52,643 bases of DNA from a virus (taxonomy: Duplodnaviria; Heunggongvirae; Uroviricota; Caudoviricetes; Crassvirales), in IMG/VR virus record IMGVR_UViG_3300027816_000067, positions 72,322-124,964 of that record; one strand, 5' to 3'. Under the pieces are notes generated by a model. That model did no database searches and was not told where the DNA came from. It was given only the letters and a program-made list of their open reading frames with translations. Every line of letters begins with the position of its first letter. Position 1 is the stretch's first letter. Both the position numbers and the translations under genes were made by a program. Below are positions 10,729-40,954 of this stretch, in pieces.

Positions 10729-13700
10729 TTATAATTCAGCTTTACGTATCTTTACACCAAAATCGTATAAATATAATGAATTTTGTGTTAAATCCAAGTT
10801 AGGTGCATTATCGTACTTAAATCTTACTTTAGCATATACACCTACTAATGGTTTCTTTTTATACACGTCTGCATTTGCATCCTTCATTTTATTAAAGTTC
10901 CATGTATTATGCGCTGCTCTAGTATTTCCAGGATTATTAAAATCACTATGAGGTTGTATTACAATTTCTCCTGTTTGTTGATAATTTGTTTCTAGTTGTA
11001 TATGAGAAATAGTTTTATCTCTTATTAACTGGTTATTACTATCAAACATTTCACTAGTCCAAAATGTATTAAAGAATATTTTATCATCTTGTTGATAATC
11101 ATTAAATACCAAATCAATATAGGATGGTTGAACACTATTACCAAAATACTTACAGATAGTTCCTTCTACATTAAATTGATGTATCTTATTATCTTTAAAT
11201 CCAAAGAAAGTCTTATTGTTAAAAAACATATAATCAGGAGTATAATCGTGATACCCTACCCACTGTTGATCGGACAAAGAGAAAGAAATAGTAAAAGGAT
11301 TAGTATTAGATTTTTTACTGAATATTAATCTTTTAAACATAGGATCATAACAAGTCATAATACCTTGACCTGTAATGGGGTTATCTGGAAATGTATTATC
11401 TATTAAGCAATTATCTCTAAAGAAATTAAACATTCCAAAATTAGATATTTCCTGAACACCATTTGGTCCAATTATAAATACTCTTCCTGTATTTTGATCT
11501 AACCAACTATATCCACCTAAAAAAGAACAACAACCAAATATATTTTGTACTCCTAAATAACCTAACCTAGAAGGAATAGGTTCTTTTGGTTCTTGTGAAA
11601 ATATATCGCCAGCACCTAAAAATACTTCTGTAGAATCAAAACTAAGTCTATTTGCTCCAATAGTCCTAAATAAACCATATCTATGATGAATTAACAATAC
11701 ATCATCTAATACTGCAAGATTAACAATTTCTCCTCTATTTCTATTCTTATCATAAAAATCATTAGATAAAAATGTTTTCCATGAATTTAATCCTGTAAAA
11801 TTAGTGCCAGCTACACCACTACGAATAACTCTAAACGGAAATTTATTAGTTACCTGATTAACTTTATTAGGATTATATATTAATGCTTGATTAATATAAT
11901 TAGTTTCTTTATAATCACTTTTAAAACCTGATGTATCGTAAGTATCACTTCCAAAATTAAATTGTATTCTTCTATCGTCTGACTTTAGATAAAAATTAGA
12001 AGCATTAGTTTTTGGATAATATTTTGTATTTTCATTTCCATCTACCTCATATCTTAATCTAGTATTGTACCTACTTTCACAAATATGATACCTTATTGTC
12101 ATTGCTCTAGCTTTATTATTAGTTATATCACTTGGTCTAGCGCTAGTACTACCTACGTGCATTTTTGTAATAGGTCCAATAAATCTATCACCGTAACCAA
12201 TATGATTTTTAGTATATAGTGGTGGAGCTACTGTACCATCTAATAAAGGAGAACAAATTGTTAAAATTTGTTGATCGTATAAACTATGAACATTAGACTT
12301 TACTTGACATAAAGAATATAAGTACGTCTCTTCAATAAAGTCTGTTGGAGTAGGTTCATTACCTTGTATTAAACCAGTTGGAATAAAAGTAATACCCAAT
12401 TTAGTATCATAGTTAATACGTTTAAAACTAAAATTTGGAGGGTTACCTTCATTCATTCTTTCATATAATGTACTTTTTAAATAGATAGATTCACCACTTC
12501 GTAAATTATATTTATTGCCGTCTAATACACCATTTGCTAAATATCTAAATTCGGTTACTGGAAAAGTACTAAGAGTATTAATCATAACATGATCAGGAAA
12601 CTCTCTTTTAACTCCAGAAACAACACCAGGAACTTTTATAGGTCTATTTATGTAATCTAAGAGATATATAAAACCACTATTATCTGGAGAAACTACATCA
12701 CCTCTTGAATCTCTGCTTCCAAAATATCTATACCTTGCTTCTAATCTAAGGTATAATTGAGAAGTAGATAATTGTGGTTTATCTTTAAGTAAATCTCTTA
12801 TGTGTGACCTAATACTATTAAACTCAATAGATTGAACACGTGTACCATCATAAGATGACTCATTATTATATGCGGTATCCCACTCTATATTATCCGTTAC
12901 TGTTGGATTTTTAGCACTAAATTGTAATAAATCTAATCCATAATTAATACAATCTTCATAATCTTTTTTAGCATAACAAATAAAATAACCTGAAAATTTA
13001 CCTTGCATTTCAACAGGAATTGCAGGTATATACGTGTCAATACCTAAAATATCTAATTGAGATTTTAAATATTCGGGATTACTATTGTAATGTCTAGTTC
13101 TACATTCTTGATAACTAGGAAATACGTGATGTCTTACTCGTTGACCACCTAAACCACCAGGCCAATTAGGAGGATACTCTTCATTTTCATTCTCCCAATA
13201 ACCCATATTTGAGTAAAAAGACTGGTTAGGACTTATAGTAGTTCCGGCTGGAGTAAGAACAGTAGTATAAGTAGTATCGCTTTGATTAGTTGTATCTCTT
13301 ATTTGGTATCTTTTAGCTGCAATACCACCTACAGTAATATTAGCTAAAGGATCGGGTTCTCCGGGAATAACTGGTCTACCAGGAATATGATATGCTTTTG
13401 ATAAAGAACCATTATTTAATACAAATACTATATAAAAAGCATAAACTTCTTTATGTCCAAAAGTAGGTAAGTTTTGTGCATTTAAATTATTTGCACTTGT
13501 AATTGTGCTATTATAATAAATTTTTATTTGATTAGCTACTTCTTGAAAATTAAAATCTTCTTGTGTTTCTAAATCTGCAAGATATAGTACATTATGAAGT
13601 TGAGCCATTGCTCCAACTTTTGTATAAATAGGTTTTGAAGTTAATACTTCTTCTAAAGATAAAGTAACTGGTGTTTCTGAACCAATATAAGTAATCGTCA

Positions 13701-14523
13701 TATTTGGTCCAATGATAATTTCTTCTTTAATTTCAAAAGCTGTTTTAACACCATTGATAGTACTAATAGCTACTAAAACAAAACTATTATATGATGTATC
13801 TAAACCAGTTAATTGAATTTGAATAGATTTACCAGTAAAAGAACCAGGAGGAGTACCGTCATATAATGAAACATTACCTGTAATATCTTCAACAACATAT
13901 ACAGAGCTTTGAAATGGACTATAATTTGTAATAGTTCCATCTATATTTTTATATTTAATTGCAAACGTATAGTGTCCTGCTTTTATGCTTCCACCACTGT
14001 TTAATATTGTAGAAACTATGTTTGGGCTTTTAAAAGAAGGAAACAGGTTTAATTTGTTTAAGTCTGTGGCCGTTATAAAAGCTTTTCCAACAGTAAGAGC
14101 AAAACCTAAATTATCAATATTAGCAATTCTTGCTACATTATTTTTATCTGTCCAAGATATTATACGTTGTTTTAAAAAATTGTAATCAAATTCACTTGAT
14201 CTAATAGGATAGTTTTGACTAAAATTTAGTAAATTATCTATAATAATATCAGAATAAACTCCATTAGTTTCTACAACACCTAATCTGTCTTGACCACCAT
14301 TGATTCCATCAGAATAAACAACATAAGAACCATCAGGAAATACAGTTGTTCCAATAGGTTTTGCTGTTGCAAATGGATAACCTGTTGCAGTTACAACAGT
14401 ACCTAGATCGGATGTAATAGCACGTTTTTTCTTATCTTTTAAAATATTACGTGCATCAATCCAAGTTCCTTTTGGTTGATTAAACTCGTTACTATCTTGA
14501 TATAATCCTTTATCGGGTAACAT
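10729..14523 (-). CDS. crAss-like muzzle / tail stabilisation protein (P22 gp10-like), 1264 aa
   Basis: Size, beta-rich composition, N-terminal KGTWIDARNI, C-terminal SYIDLVFND...KIFFNTFW...WNFN; position after ring protein. Confidence 0.8.
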   Translation of the reverse strand: MLPDKGLYQDSNEFNQPKGTWIDARNILKDKKKRAITSDLGTVVTATGYPFATAKPIGTTVFPDGSYVVYSDGINGGQDRLGVVETNGVYSDIIIDNLLNFSQNYPIRSSEFDYNFLKQRIISWTDKNNVARIANIDNLGFALTVGKAFITATDLNKLNLFPSFKSPNIVSTILNSGGSIKAGHYTFAIKYKNIDGTITNYSPFQSSVYVVEDITGNVSLYDGTPPGSFTGKSIQIQLTGLDTSYNSFVLVAISTINGVKTAFEIKEEIIIGPNMTITYIGSETPVTLSLEEVLTSKPIYTKVGAMAQLHNVLYLADLETQEDFNFQEVANQIKIYYNSTITSANNLNAQNLPTFGHKEVYAFYIVFVLNNGSLSKAYHIPGRPVIPGEPDPLANITVGGIAAKRYQIRDTTNQSDTTYTTVLTPAGTTISPNQSFYSNMGYWENENEEYPPNWPGGLGGQRVRHHVFPSYQECRTRHYNSNPEYLKSQLDILGIDTYIPAIPVEMQGKFSGYFICYAKKDYEDCINYGLDLLQFSAKNPTVTDNIEWDTAYNNESSYDGTRVQSIEFNSIRSHIRDLLKDKPQLSTSQLYLRLEARYRYFGSRDSRGDVVSPDNSGFIYLLDYINRPIKVPGVVSGVKREFPDHVMINTLSTFPVTEFRYLANGVLDGNKYNLRSGESIYLKSTLYERMNEGNPPNFSFKRINYDTKLGITFIPTGLIQGNEPTPTDFIEETYLYSLCQVKSNVHSLYDQQILTICSPLLDGTVAPPLYTKNHIGYGDRFIGPITKMHVGSTSARPSDITNNKARAMTIRYHICESRYNTRLRYEVDGNENTKYYPKTNASNFYLKSDDRRIQFNFGSDTYDTSGFKSDYKETNYINQALIYNPNKVNQVTNKFPFRVIRSGVAGTNFTGLNSWKTFLSNDFYDKNRNRGEIVNLAVLDDVLLIHHRYGLFRTIGANRLSFDSTEVFLGAGDIFSQEPKEPIPSRLGYLGVQNIFGCCSFLGGYSWLDQNTGRVFIIGPNGVQEISNFGMFNFFRDNCLIDNTFPDNPITGQGIMTCYDPMFKRLIFSKKSNTNPFTISFSLSDQQWVGYHDYTPDYMFFNNKTFFGFKDNKIHQFNVEGTICKYFGNSVQPSYIDLVFNDYQQDDKIFFNTFWTSEMFDSNNQLIRDKTISHIQLETNYQQTGEIVIQPHSDFNNPGNTRAAHNTWNFNKMKDANADVYKKKPLVGVYAKVRFKYDNAPNLDLTQNSLYLYDFGVKIRKAEL

Positions 14524-15317
14524 TATTCAATATTTGAAGGTTGTTCTAAATTCATAAAAAACTCTTGACCCCACTCATTACCTATTGCAAATCGACTCCA
14601 AGTATTTCTAAATCTTTCGGCTGCATCAATGCTAGGCATTTTAGGAGCATTTTCTGCACGAAGTCTATAAGTTTCCCACATTTGATATGCATCTTTCCAA
14701 GAAAGATCAGGGTGTTTAAATCCTTTTAAAAGCATATTATAAACTACATACCACTCAACTGCCATTTTATAATCAGCATCATCAAGAATACGAGGATAAC
14801 CATTTTTATCTAAGGCAAAACCTACATAATGTAATTTAATCAATCCTTCTGTAAATGATGTATAAATATAGTCTCCATCTAAATTATAATAAGGAGCACC
14901 AGGAGAAATACCTGTTGTCCTTGGATTGTCTTCTGCAAATCCATATCCTGTTTGATCAGAACCTAAAAACATTTTTACACCACGATAAGTACAGTCAGGA
15001 TTATATTCTACTTGAGGAAAAGGAGTAGTGCCGTCGGGATTAAGTAGATTTCTTTCTGAAAAAGCATCAGGTAACAGTTGTTCTATTACTTTAATACGCT
15101 CTACATGACACGGAACTTTTGCTCTATTATTAGTTACTTTAATATAAGGTGGTTCTGTTTGTTTATGTTCAAATCCAGCATGATAACCAATAGCTTGAAT
15201 AGCTAAACCAATATCCTCAATAGCATCACCAATCCAACTTGAATCAGGTGGTCTAAATGTTCTTTGTACTTTGTTTAAAATAGTAGAAACAGAAGTAAGT
15301 TTATGAATGTGAGGCAT
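14523..15317 (-). CDS. crAss-like tail ring / tail tubular protein (P22 gp4-like)
   Basis: Motifs YNLDGDYIYTSFTEGLIKLHY, LDKNGYPRILDD, WETYRLRA; synteny IHF-like - ring - muzzle. Confidence 0.8.
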   Translation of the reverse strand: MPHIHKLTSVSTILNKVQRTFRPPDSSWIGDAIEDIGLAIQAIGYHAGFEHKQTEPPYIKVTNNRAKVPCHVERIKVIEQLLPDAFSERNLLNPDGTTPFPQVEYNPDCTYRGVKMFLGSDQTGYGFAEDNPRTTGISPGAPYYNLDGDYIYTSFTEGLIKLHYVGFALDKNGYPRILDDADYKMAVEWYVVYNMLLKGFKHPDLSWKDAYQMWETYRLRAENAPKMPSIDAAERFRNTWSRFAIGNEWGQEFFMNLEQPSNIE

Positions 15318-15783
15318 ATTCTGCTTGTGGATTTAATTGTACTGCTTTTGCAACTGCTCTTCTATTTCCTGTCATTGGTGTAAACTTATACATTTTACAA
15401 TTCTTAATAAAAGTAGCTGCTTTATCTTTAAACCAAGACCATTTATAATAATCTCCTTCATGGTAAATAAACCATTTTACACCATCAAGTGCAGTAGTTT
15501 TATTAAAAGGAGTAAGTCCACTATCTATTAATTCCTGTTTTCTCTTTTTAGAAGCTCCCCAATTAATACTTTCACCCTTTCTTGCTACACGAAGAACTTT
15601 AAAATATCCTATATTTATTTTAAAATTATATTCGTTAAATATAATTTTATTAGAAACACCTTTATGAAATTCTCTAACTACATCGTAAAAATCTCTATAG
15701 GAACAAGTTTCTTTATTTATTAAACCTTGTTCTATGCAAAGATTATAAATTGATCTAGTATTATATTGACTGTTAGGATTCAT
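15301..15783 (-). CDS. crAss-like IHF/HU-related protein
   Basis: INWGASKKRKQEL...GVKWFIYH...YKWSW...IKNCKMYKFTP resembles the IHF-like gene conserved in crAss-like tail modules. Confidence 0.75.
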   Translation of the reverse strand: MNPNSQYNTRSIYNLCIEQGLINKETCSYRDFYDVVREFHKGVSNKIIFNEYNFKINIGYFKVLRVARKGESINWGASKKRKQELIDSGLTPFNKTTALDGVKWFIYHEGDYYKWSWFKDKAATFIKNCKMYKFTPMTGNRRAVAKAVQLNPQAEYASHS

Positions 15784-16417
15784 TTAATTTAATTTCTTGC
15801 GTTTCTGGTACTTGACGTACTGATCTATATTCTTCAAGAATAAATTGTTTAATAAGACGTTTCATATCATCATCAATATAAACAGCCTCTAAACAAGGTT
15901 TACCTTCACAATTAGTTAAATTTAATAATTCTAATGGATTACCAAATACATCTCTAACATTAATACGTTGTGTAGCACTATTAAAAATATAAATGTATCC
16001 ATCTACATAATCGTAATAAGTATCTGATTTAGTAAATTTATTACCTTCTAATATATTTTTTATAATGTAAGAAGGAGCGTAAGTAAATGCTTTTTCTGCA
16101 TTAGCGGAACCAACAAATAAGAAAGGAGTAGACATATTATTTGTTCTAACTCCAGAAGGAACTCTGTCTATTGTTCTAGATACTTCACACTCTATATCTT
16201 CGTCAATGCAACATTCAACTGCTTTAACTTTCTTTAATTTTAAACAAATTTTTTGCTCGCTACCTCTAGGAAATCTACCATTTTTATCAAACTCTTGTTT
16301 TAAAATAGTTGCTCTATATCCTATAATAGACTGTTTTAATACCTCTAAAAAAGGTAAATCAAATTGTTTATTAAAAATTGTTGCAATTTCTTCTGCAAAT
16401 ACTTTTATTTCAGTCAT
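15773..16417 (-). CDS. crAss-like tail ring protein
   Basis: Cys cluster (VECC...CEVSRT...VP), FLFVGS, YDYVDGYIYIFN, VFGNP motifs; synteny. Confidence 0.75.
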   Translation of the reverse strand: MTEIKVFAEEIATIFNKQFDLPFLEVLKQSIIGYRATILKQEFDKNGRFPRGSEQKICLKLKKVKAVECCIDEDIECEVSRTIDRVPSGVRTNNMSTPFLFVGSANAEKAFTYAPSYIIKNILEGNKFTKSDTYYDYVDGYIYIFNSATQRINVRDVFGNPLELLNLTNCEGKPCLEAVYIDDDMKRLIKQFILEEYRSVRQVPETQEIKLNES

Positions 16418-18798: not shown

Positions 18799-19305
18799 TT
18801 AAACTAATTTATCCCAAGTAAAATGATCTTTAGGAACTTTAAAAAACATATCTTTAGCTTCTAATCTAAATTCCCAATGCCATCTTTCACTAGGAACTGT
18901 TCTTACTAATTTATTGTATCTAAAAGCATTTTTAACTAACCATTCATAAGAAGGTAGTGTTCCACCTTTAGGATTAGTTACATTAAAATCATAAGCTATA
19001 CCTGGACCATGATTAGAAAAACCAGGTCTTCCTGTTTCAGGATTAAATAATTTAGGACTTGCAGTTTTAAGATAAATAATGTCATTAACTTTTGTTTTAT
19101 CAATAACATTCCTTTTTCTTAAATCCAACTGTTCAATAGGAGTTCTAATACCTTTTGCAATAGATATATCTACACTATTTTTCTTAGCATCTGCTATTAA
19201 GCTTCTAAGAATAGGAGCATAAATTTTAAGTACTTTGGCGTTTCCAATGTACTCATATTCTGCCATTCCTATACTCTTACCATCTTTCCACAATTCTATC
19301 ATCAT
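18799..19305 (-). CDS. Endolysin, peptidase M15B/C (VanY-like) Zn-peptidase
   Basis: GIRT..EQ, SNHGPGIAYD (SxHxxGxAxD) and ERWH (ExWH) motifs. Confidence 0.85.
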   Translation of the reverse strand: MMIELWKDGKSIGMAEYEYIGNAKVLKIYAPILRSLIADAKKNSVDISIAKGIRTPIEQLDLRKRNVIDKTKVNDIIYLKTASPKLFNPETGRPGFSNHGPGIAYDFNVTNPKGGTLPSYEWLVKNAFRYNKLVRTVPSERWHWEFRLEAKDMFFKVPKDHFTWDKLV

Positions 19306-19733
19306 ACTGGTAACTCTCCATTTGCCTGACGAATTAAAATAACTTCTCTTAAAATACCCCTTGCTAAATCATCTAAACAATCTCCATTACCAACTCCCGG
19401 AAATGTATTAAGTATTTTAGACTCAAAATAAAAAGCTAAAGTTATAGCATTAGGATCAACAGTATCATCCGACAAATAAAGTCTTGTTGTAGAAGATATT
19501 TTACGTTGATTTATCATAAAAGTTTCTTCATAACTTTCTACAGCTTTTCGGGCGCGTTGAGTAGTTCCATTAGGAATTGCATCAGTTGTTTCATCAGTCT
19601 CTTTTAATGTTACAAGATATTGCACAAAAAGAGGATAACCGTCTCGTCCTATTGGCGCAGCAGTCAATTCTAGTATCATTCTTTTTCCTGTAACAGCATC
19701 ATTATTTGTCACTTTAAATTTAACTTGTGCCAT
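19302..19733 (-). CDS. Hypothetical protein (possible fibre-associated)
   Basis: 143-aa ORF, ATGA overlap with endolysin. Confidence 0.55.
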   Translation of the reverse strand: MAQVKFKVTNNDAVTGKRMILELTAAPIGRDGYPLFVQYLVTLKETDETTDAIPNGTTQRARKAVESYEETFMINQRKISSTTRLYLSDDTVDPNAITLAFYFESKILNTFPGVGNGDCLDDLARGILREVILIRQANGELPV

Positions 19734-22045: not shown

Positions 22046-24907
22046 TTAAGAAGTAACTTCAACTACTAACTCAACACCTATATGATTTGCAGCAGTATTA
22101 GAAGAAACTTCTAATTCAAAATAATCGTTTTCTACAACTGTAGTATCCCAACCTGTTAAAGTAAACCCGTTGTTTGTTCTAGAAGCACTTAACGATGGCT
22201 GAACGGAACCAGTTATATCTACTCCATTTTTTCTAACTCTTAAAGTTGCTGTTGTACTCACATCAGCTAAAGCTTTCCATCTCACAATTCTACCAGCATA
22301 AGGAGAAATAATAATAGTTCTTACTTTTGTACCCGTAGTAACTACTCCTGACTCTCCTGCAATGACTGTAATTATCTTCTCATTCTTTAAAGAATAAATA
22401 CTACCGCTAGGACTTCTCCATTGCCAATTTCCTGCATTAATATAAGTAAATATACCTCCAGTTGGGTTTCCTGTAGGTGCAGTTAATACATTTGCAATAT
22501 ATAAACCACGCTCCATTGACTGCCAAGTCACGGATGTTGTTAACAATCCTATGTTCCCATCTAATCCACTTCCTGCTTTATTACCGTAACTTAAATAAAG
22601 ATCTCCACCATTATTATTTCCGCTTTGAGCATTTCCAGAACGAATTGTAAGATTTTGCCCAACCGCTAGATTACTAGAAGAGTAAATTTCTCTATTGGCG
22701 CTTAAAATAATCCCTGTAAAAGAATTAAGTGATCCTCCGCTTATCAAAACTAATTTAGAGACAGTGTTGAAAAATAACCAGTTATTAATAACAACTTGAT
22801 TTTCCGAATTTAAATGTAGGTTAGCATTAAATAAATTATTACTTGCAGAAATAGTTCTATCACCAGCAAAGGTAGAATCTCCCAATTTTAAGGTTGTAGT
22901 TTGTAATCCTATTGATGCTCCTCCTTTTGGGGAAAGCAATAACGGCACCGCTCCAGCGCTACCATCAGTTACTATTGATCTTGTAGAGCCTGCAACAAGT
23001 GTATTATCTCCTAAAGTAATATCTCCATTGGCAGCACTAAATAATTTTCTACCAATGGCATTAGTGCCATTACTTACCATTAGTTCGTTACTTACTGCAC
23101 TGTTGGTTATTCCACCACCTGCACCTAACCCAACCCAAGCACCATTCTGTCTAAACCTGAATGTGTTAGATGTGGTGTTATACATGATCAACCCATTAAC
23201 CGGACTTGAATCATCTACTGTGTTAGTGCCTACTACAAGAGAGCCATTATTACCTGTTGCAAAAGTTTGGCGGCCAGTAAACGTTTTGGCACTAAGAACG
23301 TAACCTCTATCGACTAAACTTCTGTCGGTGTAGTTAGCTGAATAATCATTTCCATATTTTAACCCTCCCTGTCCAACGTTACCGGCTTCTCCAAAAAAAA
23401 CTTCTTCAACCGCTTCCTGGTTAAACACTCGGAACCTTCCTCCTCCTCCCAAACCATCCCCCGCATTAAAAGTAATTTCGTAGCCACTATAGTCGATAGA
23501 CGTGTTAGAATTAAGACTACCCGTCAACCACCCATTCAAATCACTTCTGCTCGCAGTCTCCTGCCATACTGTACCGTTATGCCAGTTAGGTCTATTACTT
23601 GTTGTTGAATGTATTTGTAAACCACTATAAGGACTTCCAATAGCATTACGTTGGGTATCTGTCATTCGCGGCAAAGCGAAACCCTGTGTGGTGGATTGGA
23701 TGTCGAGAATGGTATTGGCATTGGTTAGCGAAGTGCCTCCGATCAACATAGAGCCTGAAGTATTTCGCCATGCGATGTGAGTTGCGCCTGTAAGAGACGT
23801 CAGTGTTGGGTTATAGTCAATGCCGTTGATTGTCCCGCTGTAGCTTGCTGTAGTATTATAGGTTGGATTCAGCTGCAAATGCGTATGCGTATTCGTACCG
23901 GAATTTCTTGTAAATCCTCCTTTGGTGCGGATAAATACACCTGAGTTGACTCCACCTATATTTGTGTCAGAAGTCGTCTCCCGTATCTCCATCGCAGCAC
24001 CACCAGTAGGTATTGATGAAAGATCAAAGCGAAATGGATTTGTTGCCCCCGCAATAGAATTTATTTGGCCCACATTAATATTTGATCCACCTCCTCCGCC
24101 AATAAGTGACGACCAGCCTTGATAAGAACTTCCTATCCATGTATGCGTTGTAGCCGTTGTTGTTAAATTCAATGTACCTTCATCGTTTAGTGTTAATCGT
24201 GTTACGTTGGCGCTATTAGCCACGCGCAAACCAAAGGTCGAAGATGTAGTACCCGTACCACGGACGTCCAGCCTTGTGTTGTCTGTAATAGTGGCACCCG
24301 TGGGCCCAACCAGCAAATTCCCGTTCAGTAGATTCACATTGTTTGCGCCCAAGGCATTAGTTCCTATCGCCAGCAACGTGCCGCTGAAATCGGGCAGCGT
24401 ATAAGTACGATCGGCTGTTATGCCAGTTGCGTCAAAAGTGCGTATGAACGAACTTCCACCTGTGCCTAACCTCCAGTTCAATCGTCCGCTATTATCTGCC
24501 CAAAGCGTTGTTCGGCTTGCGGCACCCGTTGGGTTGGCGCTCTGCCAATCCATCTGCAAAAAGCCAGCGCCAGCAGTGCCGTTCACACGCAGTGATTGCA
24601 AAGTTTCAGCACCGGTAATTCCATACCCGCTAAGAGTGGTGGGGGTGCCAGTGATCTTGCTCCAAGCTAAAGAATTTAACCAAGAAGGATTGGAGTAGCT
24701 ACCAGAAAGAAGGGGAAACAAATTCTGCCACTGAGATATACTCATCTTTCTGTTAGCCCCTCCTTGTACCACAGGCACTAACTCCGTACCAGTTGGGTCA
24801 GTGGCTGCTGGCATGTCGCTTATTTTAACGCTTTGCGCACTTGCCGCAAGCGCAACAAGTAGCAAAATCAGCGCAGCGATTAAGATGGATAGTAATTCAC
24901 GTTTCAT
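22046..24907 (-). CDS. Mosaic tail fibre/spike protein with N-terminal signal peptide (953 aa)
   Basis: Gly/Thr/Asn-rich. KISDMPAATDPTGTELVPVVQGG fibre-anchor-like motif, WLNSLAWSKITGTP repeat motif, LDIQSTTQGFALPRMT..QRNAI Bacteroidota motif. GC content falls from the N- to the C-terminal part. Confidence 0.8.
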   Translation of the reverse strand: MKRELLSILIAALILLLVALAASAQSVKISDMPAATDPTGTELVPVVQGGANRKMSISQWQNLFPLLSGSYSNPSWLNSLAWSKITGTPTTLSGYGITGAETLQSLRVNGTAGAGFLQMDWQSANPTGAASRTTLWADNSGRLNWRLGTGGSSFIRTFDATGITADRTYTLPDFSGTLLAIGTNALGANNVNLLNGNLLVGPTGATITDNTRLDVRGTGTTSSTFGLRVANSANVTRLTLNDEGTLNLTTTATTHTWIGSSYQGWSSLIGGGGGSNINVGQINSIAGATNPFRFDLSSIPTGGAAMEIRETTSDTNIGGVNSGVFIRTKGGFTRNSGTNTHTHLQLNPTYNTTASYSGTINGIDYNPTLTSLTGATHIAWRNTSGSMLIGGTSLTNANTILDIQSTTQGFALPRMTDTQRNAIGSPYSGLQIHSTTSNRPNWHNGTVWQETASRSDLNGWLTGSLNSNTSIDYSGYEITFNAGDGLGGGGRFRVFNQEAVEEVFFGEAGNVGQGGLKYGNDYSANYTDRSLVDRGYVLSAKTFTGRQTFATGNNGSLVVGTNTVDDSSPVNGLIMYNTTSNTFRFRQNGAWVGLGAGGGITNSAVSNELMVSNGTNAIGRKLFSAANGDITLGDNTLVAGSTRSIVTDGSAGAVPLLLSPKGGASIGLQTTTLKLGDSTFAGDRTISASNNLFNANLHLNSENQVVINNWLFFNTVSKLVLISGGSLNSFTGIILSANREIYSSSNLAVGQNLTIRSGNAQSGNNNGGDLYLSYGNKAGSGLDGNIGLLTTSVTWQSMERGLYIANVLTAPTGNPTGGIFTYINAGNWQWRSPSGSIYSLKNEKIITVIAGESGVVTTGTKVRTIIISPYAGRIVRWKALADVSTTATLRVRKNGVDITGSVQPSLSASRTNNGFTLTGWDTTVVENDYFELEVSSNTAANHIGVELVVEVTS

Positions 24908-27366: not shown

Positions 27367-29511
27367 TCATAGTTCTTCATTGTTTCTCTGAATTAGGAGC
27401 ATGTTCGCCTTGCTTTTGAATACTGAATAGTCTAAATCTAATAGATAACAGGGAATAAATCCAGTACTTCCTCTACTAATTCCCACTGCGTTATTCTTAT
27501 TTTCATTCAGCAACTTGTACGTTTCCCAGCTCATTTCATAATTACCGACTTCCACCAAGTAAGGGTACCAAAGCCTTGGTGAACCCGTAGATGAGTAGTT
27601 TGACCGCTCATTTATTAATTCGTCAGGATTGGTAGTAGCTTCATAATCAGTAGGACGTAATCTAGTTTGAGCTAAGTTATTTCCCTCTCCTCTTCCAAAC
27701 ATGTACAACAACCCATCATAGTTGAATAAATTCCTCCACCGTTTAAAGACCCTCATCACAGTGTGGCGAAGATTGGCTCTTGCAGAGGAGTTTAAAATTC
27801 CAGTTATTGAAGCAAAGTTTTCCGCAAACTCAAGTTGCCAATTACTTCCATCCGGAATAACAGACACCAGCATCATGTCCTCATCCAATCGGTCATCCTT
27901 GCCAAACTCTAGTTTGTTCCTCCTGCTCCGCTCAATAGCCAGCCCAGCAGTTATAAAGGAACTTAAAATTTTCAAGTCTTCCCCAAAGGTAGCCGCCTGT
28001 ACATTTCGGGTCTGCTTTGTCTGAGGGTCATCAATACCTGAACTACTTTCAGCACTCCATTTCTGATAACCAATCTCCACACTATTTATAAACCTCTCTG
28101 CATCAAACCTTCGTACTATGTTTCGACAATCTGGAAAATTAACAATAACAGTAGGATTGAAAGCGTATGCCTTATCCTCAATGTAAATTTTGTCTTCACC
28201 TAAAACCTTAGTGTACCCTAAACAAAGATTGAACATCGGGTCAGCTCCTTTCCACCACTCGTCAAATGACATTGAAATCTCCTTGGTGGCGAAGTCATAA
28301 CCACGATTGTGTTTGCCTCTAAAAATTGCGTTCCTATTAAAGGTAGCGTTGCTGAATTTAGTTGATACTAGGGGAGAGTTATTGGAAGTGTACTTACGCA
28401 GTATATTATCCGCAGCATCTTTTATAAGGAATGCATCCGTGGAGGAATCTGGAAATGAGCTGTTAGTCTGAGCATATAAACGGTTTGTGCTAGCAACATC
28501 AAAATGAACTCTGTTGGTACTACCAAATGCCTCAAGATTCGAAGTCACACGGATATAAAAATAAAATTCATCTCCTGCTGAACAGTCGGTAAATGTAGGA
28601 TTGAATGAAGGTTGAAGCGCTCCGAAATTCAACCACCCACTATCATAAGGAACATTAGTCAAAACAGTATGTGGCAAAAATACTGTAGTGTGGATATCCA
28701 AGACCCCAGTTTCTATTTTTCTACGAACAATAAAAATATCAGCAGATATTGTGTCAAAGTTTTGGGGGTCTCCGACAGTAATCTTCATTCGCATTTCATT
28801 GGAGAACACCCAATCTCCTGTACTTCTGGAATTAAGTTTTAGGAAAAATAGTCTATCTGTTGTAGGAAGATTGTTACTAACTTGGTCTTCAATACCAAAA
28901 AACTCTCCAACATCATCATTTAGTTGATTGGCTGAGAGAGCAGGGATAAAATACTTAGTAGTGTTGCCTGTGTAAGTTGCCCCAAAAAAAGGAGTTGCTG
29001 AATCCCTATCTGCACGAATCTGCTTCAGCAACAGTTGACTTCGCATTTTAACAATAGTTTTCGGAACTACTGTTACAGTGCCTCCACCTACAGCTCCAGT
29101 AGATAGAAGATCAACAGGCTTCTTTATTTGGTTTATGAACTTACTCCAAAAATCATCTCGAATAACAGGTGCTACAATTTTATACTCCTGGTCTCCGGCT
29201 GAAAGTTCCTCCATCTGAATAAGTCGAATGGTTCCGGTATATAAAGTTTCCCACACCCCCTCTTCAAAAGAAATCTCGAATCTTACTCCAATTACAGTAC
29301 TGGGGCCAAATGAGTTCCTAATAGTTCTAAGAGTTTCAAAGGCCGAACCGTACCACATGAAGTTGCCTTTGAAGTGTTCAATTAGCGTGTGGTATTCCTC
29401 ATGCCGCTCAAGGGACAGAGTAATATCCTTCCACCCAGCAGGGTTGGTTACAATTTGCTGTCCTCCAGAAATACTTGGATGGATGAAGTAGGTTCTGAAT
29501 GCCGGAGTCAT
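27367..29511 (-). CDS. Distal tail / baseplate hub protein (714 aa)
   Basis: Directly downstream of tape measure; NPAGWKDITLSLER N-terminus and SVEIGYQKW...DDP pattern. Confidence 0.65.
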   Translation of the reverse strand: MTPAFRTYFIHPSISGGQQIVTNPAGWKDITLSLERHEEYHTLIEHFKGNFMWYGSAFETLRTIRNSFGPSTVIGVRFEISFEEGVWETLYTGTIRLIQMEELSAGDQEYKIVAPVIRDDFWSKFINQIKKPVDLLSTGAVGGGTVTVVPKTIVKMRSQLLLKQIRADRDSATPFFGATYTGNTTKYFIPALSANQLNDDVGEFFGIEDQVSNNLPTTDRLFFLKLNSRSTGDWVFSNEMRMKITVGDPQNFDTISADIFIVRRKIETGVLDIHTTVFLPHTVLTNVPYDSGWLNFGALQPSFNPTFTDCSAGDEFYFYIRVTSNLEAFGSTNRVHFDVASTNRLYAQTNSSFPDSSTDAFLIKDAADNILRKYTSNNSPLVSTKFSNATFNRNAIFRGKHNRGYDFATKEISMSFDEWWKGADPMFNLCLGYTKVLGEDKIYIEDKAYAFNPTVIVNFPDCRNIVRRFDAERFINSVEIGYQKWSAESSSGIDDPQTKQTRNVQAATFGEDLKILSSFITAGLAIERSRRNKLEFGKDDRLDEDMMLVSVIPDGSNWQLEFAENFASITGILNSSARANLRHTVMRVFKRWRNLFNYDGLLYMFGRGEGNNLAQTRLRPTDYEATTNPDELINERSNYSSTGSPRLWYPYLVEVGNYEMSWETYKLLNENKNNAVGISRGSTGFIPCYLLDLDYSVFKSKANMLLIQRNNEEL

Positions 29512-31781
29512 TTGCCCATTACTGATCTACGAATCAACTTTCTATTTCTGTGCTCGTCTTCCCGAACTTCATAGAGCAACGAACCTTGGCGCACTAAGCT
29601 CGGTTGAGAGGATTTGTAAGCAGCTATCAACTTTTTATTCTCCTCCCTCATTACCTTAGCCATTGTCAGCATACCAAGCTGCTCTGAGTTCATACGTTGC
29701 TCTACACCAATGCCTGAAAGCGCAAGAGCCTTGGTCTCGTCAGCAGTAAACACCTTAGAGCCTTTCTCCAAGTAAGTGAGTGAAGGCCCATTGGGAGACA
29801 AGGAGAATCTCCCAGAAGGAGTTTGAATCAACTCTGGCCCCTTCTCCCCAACAATTGCCAAACCTCCCGGTGCGAAGTCGGTACCTTTTTCGAATTTCAT
29901 TATTTGAGATCGGGCTGTAGCAAATGCAATTTTAATCAGCCCTGAGATTGCAAGGGCTCTCGCTATACCAGTAGCTCCGAAGGTAAGAACAGAATCTGGG
30001 GTAGATAAGGCTTGAGCTGTAGCCTTTGCAATGGTAGCATGCTGCACTGCCAGTAACTCCTTCTCAACCTGATTAAGTAGGAACACCAAGGCTCCTTTCG
30101 AAAGCGCCCTGATAAAATTATCATTGGACTGGAGCGCTCCCTGAATTGTAGCTACTAACTCGTTGGTCAGAGAGGTCATGTACATAGTCTCATCCATGAA
30201 CTGTTTTTTGCGCCGTTCAGACTGACTCATAAACTTTTCTGTAGTCTCCTCTCCGTATCCATTTATGACTTCTTGTACCTGCTCCTCCCAAGTCTTCAAT
30301 TCCTGTAAACGAACAAGCATTGCATCAAACTCTTCTTTCCGCTTCTTATCTTGTTCGTTTAACATCTGAGCCCGTTGCAAGTCAGCATTGATCTCGTTTT
30401 GAATTCGCTGCTCTAATTCAGCCTTCAATTTGGCAGTAAGTTCCTTAGCGTTTTTTGTTCTGGTGGCCTGTTCTTCAGCGTCAATCAATAACAACTCTTT
30501 GGATGCATCTTGGCGAATCTTTAACAACTCGGCTTCCTCGTCCTCAGTCAGCTTACGGTTTTCTTTAAAGTAAACCGCTTTGTTGCCCAGTAACCAAAGA
30601 GCAAGTGTCTTTGCTTTATTTACTTCGGCAACACCGGCCTCTCTTTGCCTATCGACACTCTTAATAATCTCCTCTTGTTTCTTGCGCTCTAGATCAAAAG
30701 TTGCCTCACCTCGTATTTGAAGCAGTCTAATTTCCAGATCGTATCTTTCTTCCATCGTTGTTCTCTCCTTAGCGTAGCGCTCAATAGCTTTTTGACTAAC
30801 TTCGTCAGCAATATCCGAAAACCACTTGAATGCAGCAGCAGCGGCAACCAATACACCCGCGACCAAGAAAATTGGATTGGAGAACAAAGCAACTCCAATG
30901 GCTTTAAAGGACTTTCCGATTCCTCCCAAGCCTTCAATAATTTCTTTGGAAGACATTCCCTTCAAACTTGCTGCTAACTGATTGGCCGAAGTGGCCGCAC
31001 CGCTCAAGTCCCCAGCTCGAAGTTGGGACCCCAATTGTTGAAAAGACCCTGCAATGTTTTCCACTCCTGAGGCTTGAGTGTTCTTCACCGCATCATTAAT
31101 ATCATTAAGTTCGTCTTTCAATTTACCGGCTCTTTGAGCAGCGGCAATAAATTCTGGACTGCCTGTACCAAGCGTTGCTGCAATTCCTGCCATCTCATCT
31201 TTAGCCGCACGTAACTCCAGCTTCAATTCCTTAGTGGCGTTTTCATATTGGCCAACCTTATCTTGGTGCTGACCCATACTTGCCTTCAAGTCTTTCACGG
31301 CTTGGTCTTGTTCTTCAATAACCTTCAATAACTCCCGACCACTATCGCTGTTTCGTTCTTGGTCACTGCGGAGTTCGCGGTAGGCATTACGATTCGCCTT
31401 GAGGGCAGCTTCCAATTCATGAAGGCTGGAAGTCTGAGCCTTAACGGACTTTGCATCCTTATCACCAAGAACAGACTTTTGTCTAGTCTCTTCCTTAACT
31501 TTTTGAAGTACTTTGATTTGATCTTGGTAAGCTTGAGTGTTTCGAGCTTCGGCAGTGGCCACTTGCTTCTGGATTTTCTCTAGCTCCATTTGAGCTAATG
31601 TTAAATCTTCAATAGCTTTCTTGTGTTTCGAGGGGCTATCTCCATTAGCAGCAGCGTTGAAACTCTTCGTTACCTCCATAAGTTTGTAGGCAGAGTTGAC
31701 GGCCTCCATCATGTTCTTGCTGAGGACTAACGGAGCGTCAATAGCTTCCTGGGATAGAATGTCTTGTTTTTGAATACTCAT
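29508..31781 (-). CDS. Tape measure protein
   Basis: Long Ala/Lys/Glu-rich helical protein, central TM-like segment, C-terminal FEKGTDFAPGGLAIVGEKGPELI motif. Confidence 0.85.
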   Translation of the reverse strand: MSIQKQDILSQEAIDAPLVLSKNMMEAVNSAYKLMEVTKSFNAAANGDSPSKHKKAIEDLTLAQMELEKIQKQVATAEARNTQAYQDQIKVLQKVKEETRQKSVLGDKDAKSVKAQTSSLHELEAALKANRNAYRELRSDQERNSDSGRELLKVIEEQDQAVKDLKASMGQHQDKVGQYENATKELKLELRAAKDEMAGIAATLGTGSPEFIAAAQRAGKLKDELNDINDAVKNTQASGVENIAGSFQQLGSQLRAGDLSGAATSANQLAASLKGMSSKEIIEGLGGIGKSFKAIGVALFSNPIFLVAGVLVAAAAAFKWFSDIADEVSQKAIERYAKERTTMEERYDLEIRLLQIRGEATFDLERKKQEEIIKSVDRQREAGVAEVNKAKTLALWLLGNKAVYFKENRKLTEDEEAELLKIRQDASKELLLIDAEEQATRTKNAKELTAKLKAELEQRIQNEINADLQRAQMLNEQDKKRKEEFDAMLVRLQELKTWEEQVQEVINGYGEETTEKFMSQSERRKKQFMDETMYMTSLTNELVATIQGALQSNDNFIRALSKGALVFLLNQVEKELLAVQHATIAKATAQALSTPDSVLTFGATGIARALAISGLIKIAFATARSQIMKFEKGTDFAPGGLAIVGEKGPELIQTPSGRFSLSPNGPSLTYLEKGSKVFTADETKALALSGIGVEQRMNSEQLGMLTMAKVMREENKKLIAAYKSSQPSLVRQGSLLYEVREDEHRNRKLIRRSVMGK

Positions 31782-32434: not shown

Positions 32435-32747
32435 ACTTCGCTTTTAGTTCTGTAGTCTTCTCGTCTCTCGAATCAAATAATACCGAGAACTCATCTGCTT
32501 TCAGGTACATTGCATTGTAAAAGTCACCGGTCAATTTCAGGTCTACTGTAATTCGACCTTTCATGTTTGCGTACGCAATACTGGCATACTCTCCCAATGG
32601 TTCCCCCTCCCGATCAAAGGAGTCTTGAAGCTGCTCTCTGTTAAAGTCCAATACGGCTTGCTCATTCTGTCTTAGAGCCTGAAGCGCGACACGCTCCAGG
32701 TCTAAGGCAGCTAAATTAACAGCAGCTTGTTTTAGCTTCTCAAGCAT
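32334..32747 (-). CDS. Neck/tail-completion-type protein
   Basis: DLKLTGDFY...KYGEEIFG motifs; between major tail and chaperone genes. Confidence 0.5.
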   Translation of the reverse strand: MLEKLKQAAVNLAALDLERVALQALRQNEQAVLDFNREQLQDSFDREGEPLGEYASIAYANMKGRITVDLKLTGDFYNAMYLKADEFSVLFDSRDEKTTELKAKYGEEIFGTDKVNTERVAQQIVLPEVSKAILENI

Positions 32748-35396: not shown

Positions 35397-36635
35397 TTAG
35401 TCAAGCAATGCAATAGCAGCAGGAATGTCAGTCACTTTTGCAAATGCATTCAGGTCAACGTTACGAACGAGTAACGCAGTACGCTTACGCGCCTTAATCG
35501 TCATCATATCGTTGATGAATTGGTTTGCGATGAATCCCATTTCAACCTCAATTCCACCAGCGGTAAACTGAGTGGCCCAATTAAAGTCACCCACCAGCAT
35601 TTCGTTTACTCCAGGCAAGGCATGAGGAATCACGCGAACGCCATTTACATTAGCGGTTCCATCTGGTAAGAATTGCACAAATTGCGGGTTCAGGTAATGA
35701 CCGTCAACGGCTTTTTTAATCAGCATCTCGTTGAAGCGAGCGTAAGAAATAATCGCGGTGCTTGCGCGGAATTTCGATTCCCGGCCAGCGTTAATTTGCT
35801 CGGCCACTTTTACGATTAGGTCAAACAAGTTCGGCTCATCCAGTTGCAAATCAGGCGCTACATACGTTGGCGCGTACGTAAGGATACCGGTAATGTTTGG
35901 AGCAATACCATTGGCATTCCACAAATCAGCATCTTCACGCAAGCCAACGTTAACTTGTAACAGTTGTTCAATTTCGCCAGCGATGTAGTCAACATCGTTA
36001 AAGGCTTCCATTGACACCGGCACTTGGTCGCCAATTTTTTGCAGCGACAAAGTGTACTCTTGCCACGGAAAGGTAGATTCCGGGAAAGCGTTATTTTCAG
36101 CAACGGACGCAGCCGCGCGGGTAGGTGCCGATTGATCCACATAACGAACAATCCCGTTTGAGTTAGGCGCAATCGGGCGTTGACGGAACAAAGATGAAAG
36201 CGTAAAACTACGATATGCCACTTGGCCAATGTCATCCAAGCGCATTGCCTGCGTGGTGTTGGTAACGGACGAGCGGAGTACCGGCGCTTTGGTAACGGGC
36301 ACCTCAATTTTGAAAGACGTTTTCTCGCCCTTCGCAATGCGCCCCATCACATCTTTCTTTTCTTCGATCAATTCGGCCACAGACTTGTCTTTGTTGCCGC
36401 CTTTGCCGGTCAGTATCTTGTTGATTTCAAGCCCTTGAGCCTCTACGGCTTTCGTCAGCTTTTCAATTGCATCGGCTTTAACACCCGCTTTTTCAAGGGT
36501 TTCGGTAAGTTTTTCGGTTGTTACCAAGCCTTCCGTAGCCTTTTTGATTTCATTCTTCACGGCCTCAATTTGGCTGCCGTGTTCTTTTCCGAGCTTTTGG
36601 ATTAGCTCCTGAATTTCTTTCACTTCGATTTCCAT
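35397..36635 (-). CDS. HK97-fold major capsid protein
   Basis: N-terminal coiled-coil delta domain, AASVAENNAFPES, KIGDQVPVSME, LVGDF, FINDMMTIKARKR motifs. Confidence 0.92.
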   Translation of the reverse strand: MEIEVKEIQELIQKLGKEHGSQIEAVKNEIKKATEGLVTTEKLTETLEKAGVKADAIEKLTKAVEAQGLEINKILTGKGGNKDKSVAELIEEKKDVMGRIAKGEKTSFKIEVPVTKAPVLRSSVTNTTQAMRLDDIGQVAYRSFTLSSLFRQRPIAPNSNGIVRYVDQSAPTRAAASVAENNAFPESTFPWQEYTLSLQKIGDQVPVSMEAFNDVDYIAGEIEQLLQVNVGLREDADLWNANGIAPNITGILTYAPTYVAPDLQLDEPNLFDLIVKVAEQINAGRESKFRASTAIISYARFNEMLIKKAVDGHYLNPQFVQFLPDGTANVNGVRVIPHALPGVNEMLVGDFNWATQFTAGGIEVEMGFIANQFINDMMTIKARKRTALLVRNVDLNAFAKVTDIPAAIALLD

Positions 36636-37883: not shown

Positions 37884-39368
37884 TTATTGTTGATTTTGTT
37901 GAGATGGCTGACCTAAAATTTCCGAGGCTTGCTCTGGTGTAAATCCGTAAACCACTGTCAATATCCCAAGCGCAGATTCGCGCGTACTTGTTCCAGCCGC
38001 TACGCTCGCTTGAATGTTTAGAATACCTTGAACGCCTCCAACGCTGCCGCGTAATTGAGCCTGAGCCGCTAACGTTTCAACGTCAGACTGATTGTCATCC
38101 GCTGGCGGTGGTATTTCTTTTCCATCGCCAAAGCCAAGTTTTTGCAGTTCAAATCTGTATTCCGATTGGGTGATTTGTTTGTCTTGCAACAGCAGCGACA
38201 AATTAGTTATAGCAGTGCGCTTTGCTTCCGATTTGGTTTTCAAATCGTCTTCGAAAATTGGCAGATAAAAGTAATCCGCGATAATACGTGTCTGGCGATC
38301 TTTACCTCTCAGGTCGTAATCAATACCACCGATCCATTCGTTTGCCTCTGGCATGATGGTACGAACGTATAAACCCTTTTCAGCCTGCTTTTGGTTTTCG
38401 AATGTTGCCCCGCTGATAGACGCAAAAACATCTTTAGGAACGCCAGCAGCATCGCATATCTTAAAAAAGCCTTCGCGGGTTTCCTCAAAGATTCCTAAGT
38501 TCTGCGGGTTGTTTGTACCTGCCTGTTCCCATCGCAAATTTTGACTGGTAACAATTGTTTGCTTTTGACCCTTTAGCGTTCCATATTTTGAAAACGCCCT
38601 TTCTAAACGTTGGCGTTCTTCTTTTGGAAGTTCTATTGAACCGCTTATGTCCTTACTGTCATTTACCCACGCACCATTAGCGCCACGATGCGCTAAGATA
38701 ATCCCCCTGGATTCATAAGCCATTTTGAGGTTATTGATAACTGCGCTCATGGCCATGTACTTACTCTGGCCGACTAAGATTTTATCGTCAGTAGAGTTTT
38801 TGATCTTAGTCCGATTGTCGTTGAAGTGAATGATGTTTTCGCCTTCAACTTTATCGTACTCGTTATCGGCTTTCAGTATTTTGTAGAAAACCTTTGGCGG
38901 CTCGCTGTGCAGGTAAAAAGGAAGTTCAGCATCGTACTTGCACTTAATGATGTCGTGAGGGATTGTAAACAATGCCTTCACATTGCCGTTGCCCATGCCA
39001 AAAGGCAGGAGCTTGTATATGTACTCGTTGCCGTAAACTTCGCGTAAAATTTTAGTCTGAATCAAAAATTCCTTGTCGCCCTGAAACCAATTCGGGTTTG
39101 AGATTAGGTTTATGATTCGCTGCCCTTCGGTTGTTTTCTTTTCGTTGCCATCAGCGTCAACTTCTTTCAGGCGCATGTTAGCATACGAGCGGGCTTTCAG
39201 TGCAATAGGTGCGTAAACTTCTGGTATGGTTTCGAAAGCCTCCATTACGTCGGCCTCTTTGAATGTGTCAGCGGATGAGGCGAGAACGTACCAATATTGC
39301 CCGCCTTCCCTGCGCCAGCCGAGTAGATTTGTAAACGTCCTAATTAGCTTAGGAAATGTAGCTGCCAT
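37884..39368 (-). CDS. Portal protein (HK97 family) with C-terminal helical extension
   Basis: IPEVYAPIALKA, NPNWFQ, YGNEYI, AAGVPKDVF motifs; downstream of TerL. Confidence 0.88.
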   Translation of the reverse strand: MAATFPKLIRTFTNLLGWRREGGQYWYVLASSADTFKEADVMEAFETIPEVYAPIALKARSYANMRLKEVDADGNEKKTTEGQRIINLISNPNWFQGDKEFLIQTKILREVYGNEYIYKLLPFGMGNGNVKALFTIPHDIIKCKYDAELPFYLHSEPPKVFYKILKADNEYDKVEGENIIHFNDNRTKIKNSTDDKILVGQSKYMAMSAVINNLKMAYESRGIILAHRGANGAWVNDSKDISGSIELPKEERQRLERAFSKYGTLKGQKQTIVTSQNLRWEQAGTNNPQNLGIFEETREGFFKICDAAGVPKDVFASISGATFENQKQAEKGLYVRTIMPEANEWIGGIDYDLRGKDRQTRIIADYFYLPIFEDDLKTKSEAKRTAITNLSLLLQDKQITQSEYRFELQKLGFGDGKEIPPPADDNQSDVETLAAQAQLRGSVGGVQGILNIQASVAAGTSTRESALGILTVVYGFTPEQASEILGQPSQQNQQ

Positions 39369-39535: not shown

Positions 39536-40954
39536 TCAAAGTCGATTACCTAACACTGTCATTCGGGTTGCATCCCACAAATGGTCATTACCATCAATGG
39601 GGTCATCTGTAGTTACCCAAATACCGTTTACTCGAGCCCGTGCTTTCGTGTAGCCGCTTTGCTCCTTACGCCATTCCGGGCAATCGACAATGTGAATGCG
39701 ATACTTTAGCAGCGCTGAGTTGCCAAACTTGCGCGACCCTGGGTAAGTGTTAGCCGCCAAGACTCGGAAACCTTCGCGCCTACAAGCGGCAATCATGCCA
39801 CGGCCCCCATCATCTCCAGAGGGATCGGCCCAAACCGTTTCGCCCTGTGAAGGCAAATTTTGTTTGAGCAATGGCATAAGCTCATTTGGGCTGGGCGTTG
39901 GTTGGTAGAACATCTTTTGCAGATAGATGTTGTTGCCCATTACCCCTACCTTAACTAAGGCAGACGGACTTGTAGTGTATCCAAAATCCAAGCCCCAGTA
40001 GATTTTCTCGATGTTGGCTGGGAAATTTTGAACCCAAACCACATTCGGGAAAATCAAACCTTCGGGTGCGCGTCTTTCACCCTCACCGTAAACCGACCAA
40101 TTGTAAGCGTCAGCCGTGCCGGTTGCCTCGTTGTACTTGCACCGCTCCAGTTCGGACAGATCGGCCCGGTCAAAGCCTTTCGTATTGGCTTGTGTGTCGT
40201 ATGCCTTTGCCAGGTTGACCGCGTTTACAACTTCATTAACCTGATCGCTTTTGGCCCCGAATGCCTTAGCAATGCGGGAGGCGGCAATCGGTTGGTAGCT
40301 TTCAATCTTTGACCGTTCGTTGGGCGAGATAAACGGGTTATCGTGGTACGTGGTCTTTAGATAGCCCACGTCCGACCGTGGCATGACCGAATTGAAAATG
40401 TAGTGATCCGCGTATTTTGGGTTAAAATCCGCAAACCAAAACTTACGGCAGCGCATGGTGGCCTGATCGAATACCTCTTTAGGTATGTCCAGAACTTCAT
40501 TGAAGTACACGTAATCGGAGCCGGCACCCATAAATTTTGACAAATCGCCATCTGCACCTAAAAAATTTACCCGGTTGCCGAATAGCTTGAAAGTCGATAT
40601 TTCCTGTTTTCGAAGAAAAGGGTTATCGACTATACCAAAGTCTGAAAGCCTCTTTGCATAGTCATCGTACAGGGTTGTCTTGAAGCTGTTGTACGTATCG
40701 CGTATTACGTTTATCGTTGCGTTTGTTTCGAATGTGGAGGTTAGCATTACCTGAAAGTCAATCGCAGCCGTGGTCTTTCCGGATCGGCTTGACCCCTCTA
40801 AAAGCAACCCGGACTTTATGCCGCGCGTCTGGCATTCGGCTTGATATTGCTCGTAGCTAATCTGCTTTTTTTGGTAAGCGCTAAATAATTCACTTCGCTC
40901 TTTGTGCCGGAGTTGTTTGGATAAAAACGAAAGATTGGGATTGATTAAAGGCAT
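39536..40954 (-). CDS. terL: Terminase large subunit
   Basis: Walker A LEGSSRSGKT, YVYFNE Walker B, FNP, YWGLDFG nuclease motif, DHLWDATR C-terminal motif. Confidence 0.93.
   Translation of the reverse strand: MPLINPNLSFLSKQLRHKERSELFSAYQKKQISYEQYQAECQTRGIKSGLLLEGSSRSGKTTAAIDFQVMLTSTFETNATINVIRDTYNSFKTTLYDDYAKRLSDFGIVDNPFLRKQEISTFKLFGNRVNFLGADGDLSKFMGAGSDYVYFNEVLDIPKEVFDQATMRCRKFWFADFNPKYADHYIFNSVMPRSDVGYLKTTYHDNPFISPNERSKIESYQPIAASRIAKAFGAKSDQVNEVVNAVNLAKAYDTQANTKGFDRADLSELERCKYNEATGTADAYNWSVYGEGERRAPEGLIFPNVVWVQNFPANIEKIYWGLDFGYTTSPSALVKVGVMGNNIYLQKMFYQPTPSPNELMPLLKQNLPSQGETVWADPSGDDGGRGMIAACRREGFRVLAANTYPGSRKFGNSALLKYRIHIVDCPEWRKEQSGYTKARARVNGIWVTTDDPIDGNDHLWDATRMTVLGNRL

Follow-up and report, generated by a model that had tools for sequence, protein, structure and literature searches.

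A crAss-like podovirus and an HK97-type siphovirus from fresh water share recently exchanged fibre DNA and were very probably joined through it during assembly

Introduction

The virion module plan of the Crassvirales is known from phiCrAss001 (PMC10172136), and podo-, myo- and siphoviruses have been documented to share fibre modules, as in the Alteromonas phages A5, V22 and P24, which are a schitovirus, a myovirus and a siphovirus, respectively, with a common host-recognition module in otherwise dissimilar genomes (PMC10579305). A circular genome and another genome that share a repeat longer than ~300 bp are hard to reconstruct from short reads, most so when their coverages are similar (PMC6581055).

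The window analyzed here is a stretch of 52,643 nucleotides that corresponds to C1:72322-124964, the final 52.6 kb of the 124,964-bp contig C1. Like phiCrAss001, the AT-rich 90.5-kb half of this contig has terminase, crAss-type portal, capsid, fibre, ring and muzzle genes and a candidate cargo/giant virion gene, and its virion genes stand in the expected order once the half is closed through a repeat. Unlike phiCrAss001, it would be a distant, uncultured freshwater member, whose capsid protein finds its best matches among crAss-like phages with ~31% identity to the nearest in GenBank. The GC-rich half resembles vB_FspS_snork6-1 and tooticki6-1 in its HK97-type head genes, tape measure and genome size, the nearest cultured relatives of its capsid being Flavobacterium siphoviruses of 36.9-38.2 kb; the capsid identity is only ~32%, however, which on present evidence sets it in a separate genus-level group. 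As in A5, V22 and P24, fibre-module genes are common to morphologically and phylogenetically unrelated phages. In the Alteromonas phages the protein similarity of fibres and chaperones is 35-67% and extends to the C-terminal part, whereas here the likeness is in the middle of the fibre, at 93% DNA identity and with a 365-bp identical tract, the tips are unrelated, one partner is crAss-like and both are uncultured. Fibre-module exchange between unrelated phages is already well established; what sets the present case apart is the nucleotide-level identity and the crAss-like partner. As with the repeats shared by plasmids and chromosomes (PMC6581055), a circular replicon would have been misassembled into another genome through a repeat, but in the present case each replicon is a phage and the repeat encodes part of a fibre.

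Results and Discussion

Two sets of virion genes and one long repeat

A reading of this DNA from its letters and open reading frames (hereafter the sequence-only reading) had placed the meeting of two lineages in a fibre gene, with crAss-type genes to the left and HK97-type siphovirus genes to the right, and both composition and gene content support this division. GC content is 0.30 left of position 23097 and 0.44 right of 24270 (the line counts quoted earlier, 14/60 at 22801 and 35/60 at 36061, are both exact), gene-level GC3 is 0.14 in the AT-rich half against 0.46 in the GC-rich half, and tetranucleotide usage correlates at 0.87 within the AT-rich half and at 0.26-0.39 between the halves. 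HMM searches matched 10729-16417 to crAss ring and muzzle families above the cut-off (PF24228, PF25702 and PF25729). The features of the crAss-like side are as follows.

10729..14523, minus strand: crAss muzzle protein (crAss_MUZ_C, E 1.9e-9; phrog_28748, E 9e-26)
14523..15317, minus strand: crAss ring protein CrAss_Ring_1 (E 2e-29)
15773..16417, minus strand: crAss ring protein CrAss_Ring_2 (E 3.2e-18)
18799..19305, minus strand: VanY-type peptidase, probable endolysin of the crAss side (PF02557, E 2.9e-6)
19302..19733, minus strand: crAss 143-aa fibre-module gene, homologue of a siphovirus 160-aa gene
C1:13568-15025, outside the window: crAss-type major capsid protein (Crass_capsid PF23898, E 2e-62)
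C1:16343-18673, outside the window: crAss-type portal (phrog_6547, E 6e-87)

The crAss portal and capsid genes had been thought absent; both lie on C1 outside the window, and the crAss half retains its own terminase on C1 as well. For the IHF-like gene proposed at 15301-15783 there is a weak lead from the Atlas, with a score of 0.86 and 27% of members carrying Bac_DNA_binding, and the cargo position holds a 4,895-aa ORF whose in-window part had no PHROG match. A 410-aa crAss gene (window 19745-20977), which has a GC3 of 0.07 and no family match, is represented in the sister phage L038 by a remaining piece of only 70 aa (89% over 53 aa).

On the right side, matches were obtained to TerL, HK97-type portal, protease, major head protein and tape measure, as had been claimed, and the TerL, portal, protease and HK97 capsid genes of the GC-rich half lie in one operon.

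29508..31781, minus strand: siphovirus tape measure protein (phrog_167, E 1.4e-11)
35397..36635, minus strand: HK97-type major capsid protein of the siphovirus (phrog_10, E 5e-24)
37884..39368, minus strand: siphovirus portal (profile match)
39536..40954, minus strand: siphovirus terminase large subunit (profile match)

The proposed major tail gene at 32747-33634 encodes a 295-aa candidate that gave no HMM match in Pfam or PHROG and is assigned by its position only, and no match to a tail sheath was found among the proteins scanned.

Self-comparison of C1 revealed a single long repeat of 1,174 bp at 95.3% identity, C1:4944-6117 against C1:95418-96591 (window 23097-24270). The two copies are 90,474 bp apart and enclose a complete crAss-like gene set of 90,474 bp, including portal and capsid, and beyond them both ends of C1 are GC-rich siphovirus-type DNA of a ~38-kb HK97-type siphovirus, giving the order siphovirus, repeat, whole crAss-like genome, repeat, siphovirus.

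A pair of reciprocal chimeric fibre genes

The region 22046-24907 is, as read earlier, a single unbroken ORF of 953 aa on the minus strand. The switch within it had been described as gradual and centered on the STTQGF motif; instead, the protein falls into three blocks, with aa 1-212 found only in the siphovirus, aa 213-604 shared and aa 605-953 found only in the crAss-like phage.

22046..24907, minus strand: 953-aa fibre ORF in its assembled, hybrid form (N-terminus of the siphovirus, then the shared segment, then the C-terminus of the crAss-like phage)
22046..23096, minus strand: crAss-specific 3' part of the fibre gene, with its own distal tip (from protein comparison)
23097..24270, minus strand: fibre segment common to the two phages, aa 213-604 (the other copy, C1:4944-6117, is outside the window)
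24271..24907, minus strand: siphovirus-specific 5' part of the fibre gene (GC3 0.4-0.55)
23187..23887, unstranded: 701-bp tract, 100% the same in both C1 copies, the repeat that the assembler probably walked twice
23187..23551, unstranded: 365-bp tract with 0 differences between the standalone crAss-like phage and the standalone siphovirus, probably the latest exchange
23552..23759, unstranded: patch with 22 differing sites (16 synonymous codons) between the crAss allele and that of most siphovirus contigs

The left repeat copy is contained in a second fibre ORF on C1, of 1,126 aa, and the GC3 and alleles flanking the core identify the two ORFs as reciprocal chimeras: the window ORF joins a siphovirus 5' part to a crAss 3' part, and the ORF at the other end of C1 joins a crAss 5' part to a siphovirus 3' part. 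Undoing the swap predicted native fibres of ~1,216 and 864 aa, and fibres of 1,215 and 864 aa were then found, so that the lengths sum alike (953+1126 = 864+1215). The first 212 residues of the hybrid ORF match the native siphovirus fibre at 212/212 positions and its last 349 match the native crAss fibre at 349/349. Several fibre-module proteins of the siphovirus (window 22046-24907; C1:1619-4178) have hydrophobic, signal-peptide-like N-termini ending in Gln, which is unusual among virion proteins.

Each phage also assembled alone

A search for contigs on which either half continues differently found each phage assembled alone, with its native continuation on other contigs. For example, the 90,094-bp contig L006 carries in succession the capsid, a 710-aa gene, the 1,215-aa fibre, ring and muzzle genes, with no siphovirus DNA within the 20.5 kb fetched, and the 1,215-aa native crAss fibre is present on four contigs. 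The 864-aa native siphovirus fibre occurs as the exact sequence on 23 contigs, including near-complete ones of 36-38 kb; on these contigs the genes of the C1 left end come after the fibre, and close variants of the fibre are found on contigs of 37,721-37,873 bp. Since L027 (37,721 bp) links the left and right ends of C1 across 3.7 kb, the two siphovirus flanks of C1 belong to one ~38-kb genome. The core itself had 0 exact DNA matches among IMG/VR and JGI metagenome contigs, probably because close records are kept out of these sets. A literature search turned up no publication on either phage.

Logan contigs are k=31 graph paths made without repeat resolution, and two of them, L051 and L057, cross the identical tract unforked with siphovirus alleles throughout; such pure siphovirus paths indicate that in these runs the crAss branch is missing or negligible. 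Of the 24 longest crAss contigs, about 20 end within the fibre gene, and those that continue through it are native or hybrid in about equal numbers, which is the pattern that an unresolved repeat should give. Hybrid joins were seen repeatedly, in ~8 public contigs from JGI and ENA assemblies and in both orientations, the 953-aa form in four records and the 1,126/1,131-aa form in four contigs. Wherever the switch point was examined, it fell within an identical tract. These contigs warn that, by way of a fibre segment held in common, one phage genome can be threaded whole into another while the ORFs stay open and plausible.

It is scarcely credible that C1 represents a stable hybrid lineage in which crAss ejection genes serve a siphovirus head and tail. 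The ORF is open across the junction and both halves are on the same strand, in keeping with such a lineage; however, an in-frame join is automatic when homologous fibre genes are fused, and the crAss half still has its own terminase, portal and capsid on C1. In addition, both halves are 99.3-100% identical to the standalone genomes, so nothing has been lost or adapted, and the hybrid contigs vary in extent (44.9, 69.7, 96.2, 122.0 and 125.0 kb), unlike one genome. The standalone native genomes largely refute this reading.

Further fibre alleles were also seen (L019:8200-8352, L024, L031 and L012), among them a crAss variant in which the stretch corresponding to window ~23357-23494 has been replaced by one that is 15 nt longer; some siphovirus variants have another 5' part or a fibre of 901 aa.

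Misassembly or a single molecule

The sequence-only reading had offered two options, one recombinant with two tail systems, or a chimera made in assembly where the two genomes share a fibre segment, which would still imply recent exchange. The first is not supported: the crAss head genes are present, both phages assembled alone at natural size, and the depth ratio of the halves differs between runs. We regard the hybrid genome as very probably an assembly chimera of two co-occurring freshwater phages, joined through a truly common fibre segment.

The crAss-like podovirus (90.5 kb) and the HK97-type siphovirus (~38 kb) would then be independent phages of the same freshwater samples, whose ~390 middle fibre residues are homologous and would have been re-homogenised patchwise by homologous recombination, presumably in co-infected cells, leaving 365 bp identical. 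The identical tract would form a single graph edge with two entries and two exits, on which the circular crAss genome loops. Assemblers may go round a loop that sits on such an edge, and for C1 we infer a path that came in from the siphovirus, made one crAss loop and went out into the remaining siphovirus; this would yield the 125-kb contig and its two in-frame reciprocal chimeric fibre ORFs. Because the repeat is coding, a misjoin gives ORFs that are open and plausible-looking.

The join lies inside a repeat that is longer than both k and the read length and is present twice in C1 (701 bp identical), and the k-mer sets of C1 and of a crAss circle plus a siphovirus are equal for any k up to 702, so that short reads are unable to distinguish C1 from two separate genomes. 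For this reason the forks in the assembly graph, at 23187-23216 and 24235, are not decisive, since a real co-integrate would fork there too.

A single crossover in a co-infected cell would produce the same layout as misassembly, in the form of a ~128-kb molecule, and we consider it distinctly unlikely that such a co-integrate was abundant enough to dominate the assembly. The recurrence of hybrid joins in ~8 contigs and both orientations would be consistent with it, as would the similar magnitude of the halves' depths (within 1.5-fold in both runs, X1 and X3), and the identical tract is proof that these genomes recombine with each other. Nevertheless, the pure native genomes are more common, and the crAss to siphovirus ratio is not locked at 1:1 across the two runs, nor are the alleles equal inside each run. 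Flank depths were 85.7:60.3 in X3 (1.42) and 14.7:16.4 in X1 (0.90), and depths of the 169-bp allele unitigs were 136:89 in X3 (1.53) and 11.5:22 in X1 (0.52), a flip with a rough Fisher p of 6e-5; these Logan depths are coarse and inflated by other carriers of the segment (in X3 the core depth of 211-227 exceeds the flank sum of 146), and X1 and X3 may both be sources of C1. Given headful limits, neither head should be able to package whole a molecule of ~128 kb, which is far above the native 90.5 and ~38 kb. Finally, C1 carries the crAss allele of 23552-23759 in both repeat copies; a clean single crossover with the common siphovirus allele would leave it in one copy, whereas bubble collapse would leave it in both. 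Twenty runs contain at least 96% of the words of both halves, a ranking that selects runs with both and is not evidence of linkage. Of the raw-read runs, X21 and X23 gave one and no matching read, respectively.

We see a small chance that fibre-tract recombination is so frequent that true crAss-siphovirus co-integrates are visible in lake DNA, in which case some of the hybrid contigs, C1 included, would be real.

Recent exchange within the fibre segment

Under the preferred reading of C1 as an assembly chimera, what is real is, as judged from nucleotide comparison, a very recent exchange of fibre DNA that involved a crAss-like phage and a siphovirus unrelated to it; the pool to which both belong spans further lineages. 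Across the segment, the native genomes L006 and L011 have an identity of 93.4%, which is patchy, with 365 bp and 128 bp free of differences beside patches that are 3-28% diverged; the most diverged patches differ mostly at synonymous sites. This mosaic fits repeated homologous exchange at different ages.

Were the identical tract itself an artefact of allele collapse, only an old homology would remain and no recent exchange would have taken place. Collapse likely did happen at 23552-23759 in C1, and a few siphovirus contigs (L013/L033, L016 and L018) have crAss alleles there, but the same 365 bp are found in unforked Logan siphovirus contigs and in pure crAss contigs of other samples, each with its own alleles on either side, and a run of 365 at 93.4% mean identity has a probability of ~1e-11 at a given place, which makes collapse of this tract highly improbable.

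Since the GC3 of the identical tracts (0.34 for the 365-bp tract, and 0.48) exceeds the crAss 99th percentile of 0.29 (median 0.13) and falls within the siphovirus range, the net flow was probably into the crAss-like phage from a GC-richer donor, which could have been a third phage. Sister siphoviruses in IMG/VR (73% capsid identity) gave no DNA match to the fibre segment at the two loci checked.

What the two native fibres have in common lies in the middle of the fibre; their N-terminal anchors and their distal tips are unrelated, and BLASTP between the two tips found no similarity. A common receptor is therefore not implied, and we rejected the reading that both phages use the same one. An AlphaFold model of the shared segment had a mean pLDDT of 38 and exceeded 50 only in a small domain around the STTQGF motif, which is also the only part of the segment matched in GenBank phages; a search of PDB sequences with the shared-segment alignment found nothing.

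A wider exchange pool and the host

The two phages have other sequences in common. The crAss 143-aa gene is 66% identical in protein over 140 aa to the siphovirus 160-aa gene (C1:1619-2101), and we read this pair as the trace of an older exchange between them. In addition, the siphovirus variant L027 (12507-13183) shares a 162-bp piece at 95% with the crAss region C1:30285-30519, outside the window, accompanied by 44-bp pieces that also occur in L030 and L031. The piece is the 3' half of a 108-aa ORF and is a fragment in the crAss genome, at the edge of a long ORF-free region; we read it as another recent transfer between this pair of phages. The idea that this second piece is a structured RNA was dropped on finding that it is the 3' part of the 108-aa ORF.

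Other lineages take part as well. At 24669, run X3 has a loose end whose sequence is an exact match to another siphovirus, L059 (7539-8144), a third phage with its own tape measure, which joins the siphovirus fibre 5' region at this position with 97% identity over 135 bp to the contig end. The contig is binned with a Flammeovirgaceae MAG, a label that is a lead to the host. The segment is also present at 77-79% in L038, a sister crAss-like phage, and in L037, a podovirus with an SU10-type capsid, a P22-type portal and a CrAss_Ring_2 gene. These two, which come from different assemblies, have 1,787 bp in common at 99.2% (L037:13710-15496 and L038:14223-16009), consisting of the fibre end and a 483-aa gene that is 67% identical to the 502-aa post-fibre gene of the siphovirus.

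Through these connections the gene pool of small siphoviruses extends to an environmental crAss-like phage, and they offer a route to inferring a crAss host. Shine-Dalgarno motifs are nearly absent in both halves, and together with the capsid relatives and the MAG label this suggests a Bacteroidota host for both phages; that the two have the same host is a reasonable inference.

The siphovirus region downstream of the 164-aa gene (L027-L036; the gap between the C1 ends) is hypervariable and holds in one and the same slot, depending on the strain, N6/N4 methylases, C5 methylases or a Mom-like gene. This hypervariability is probably the reason that C1 ends there.
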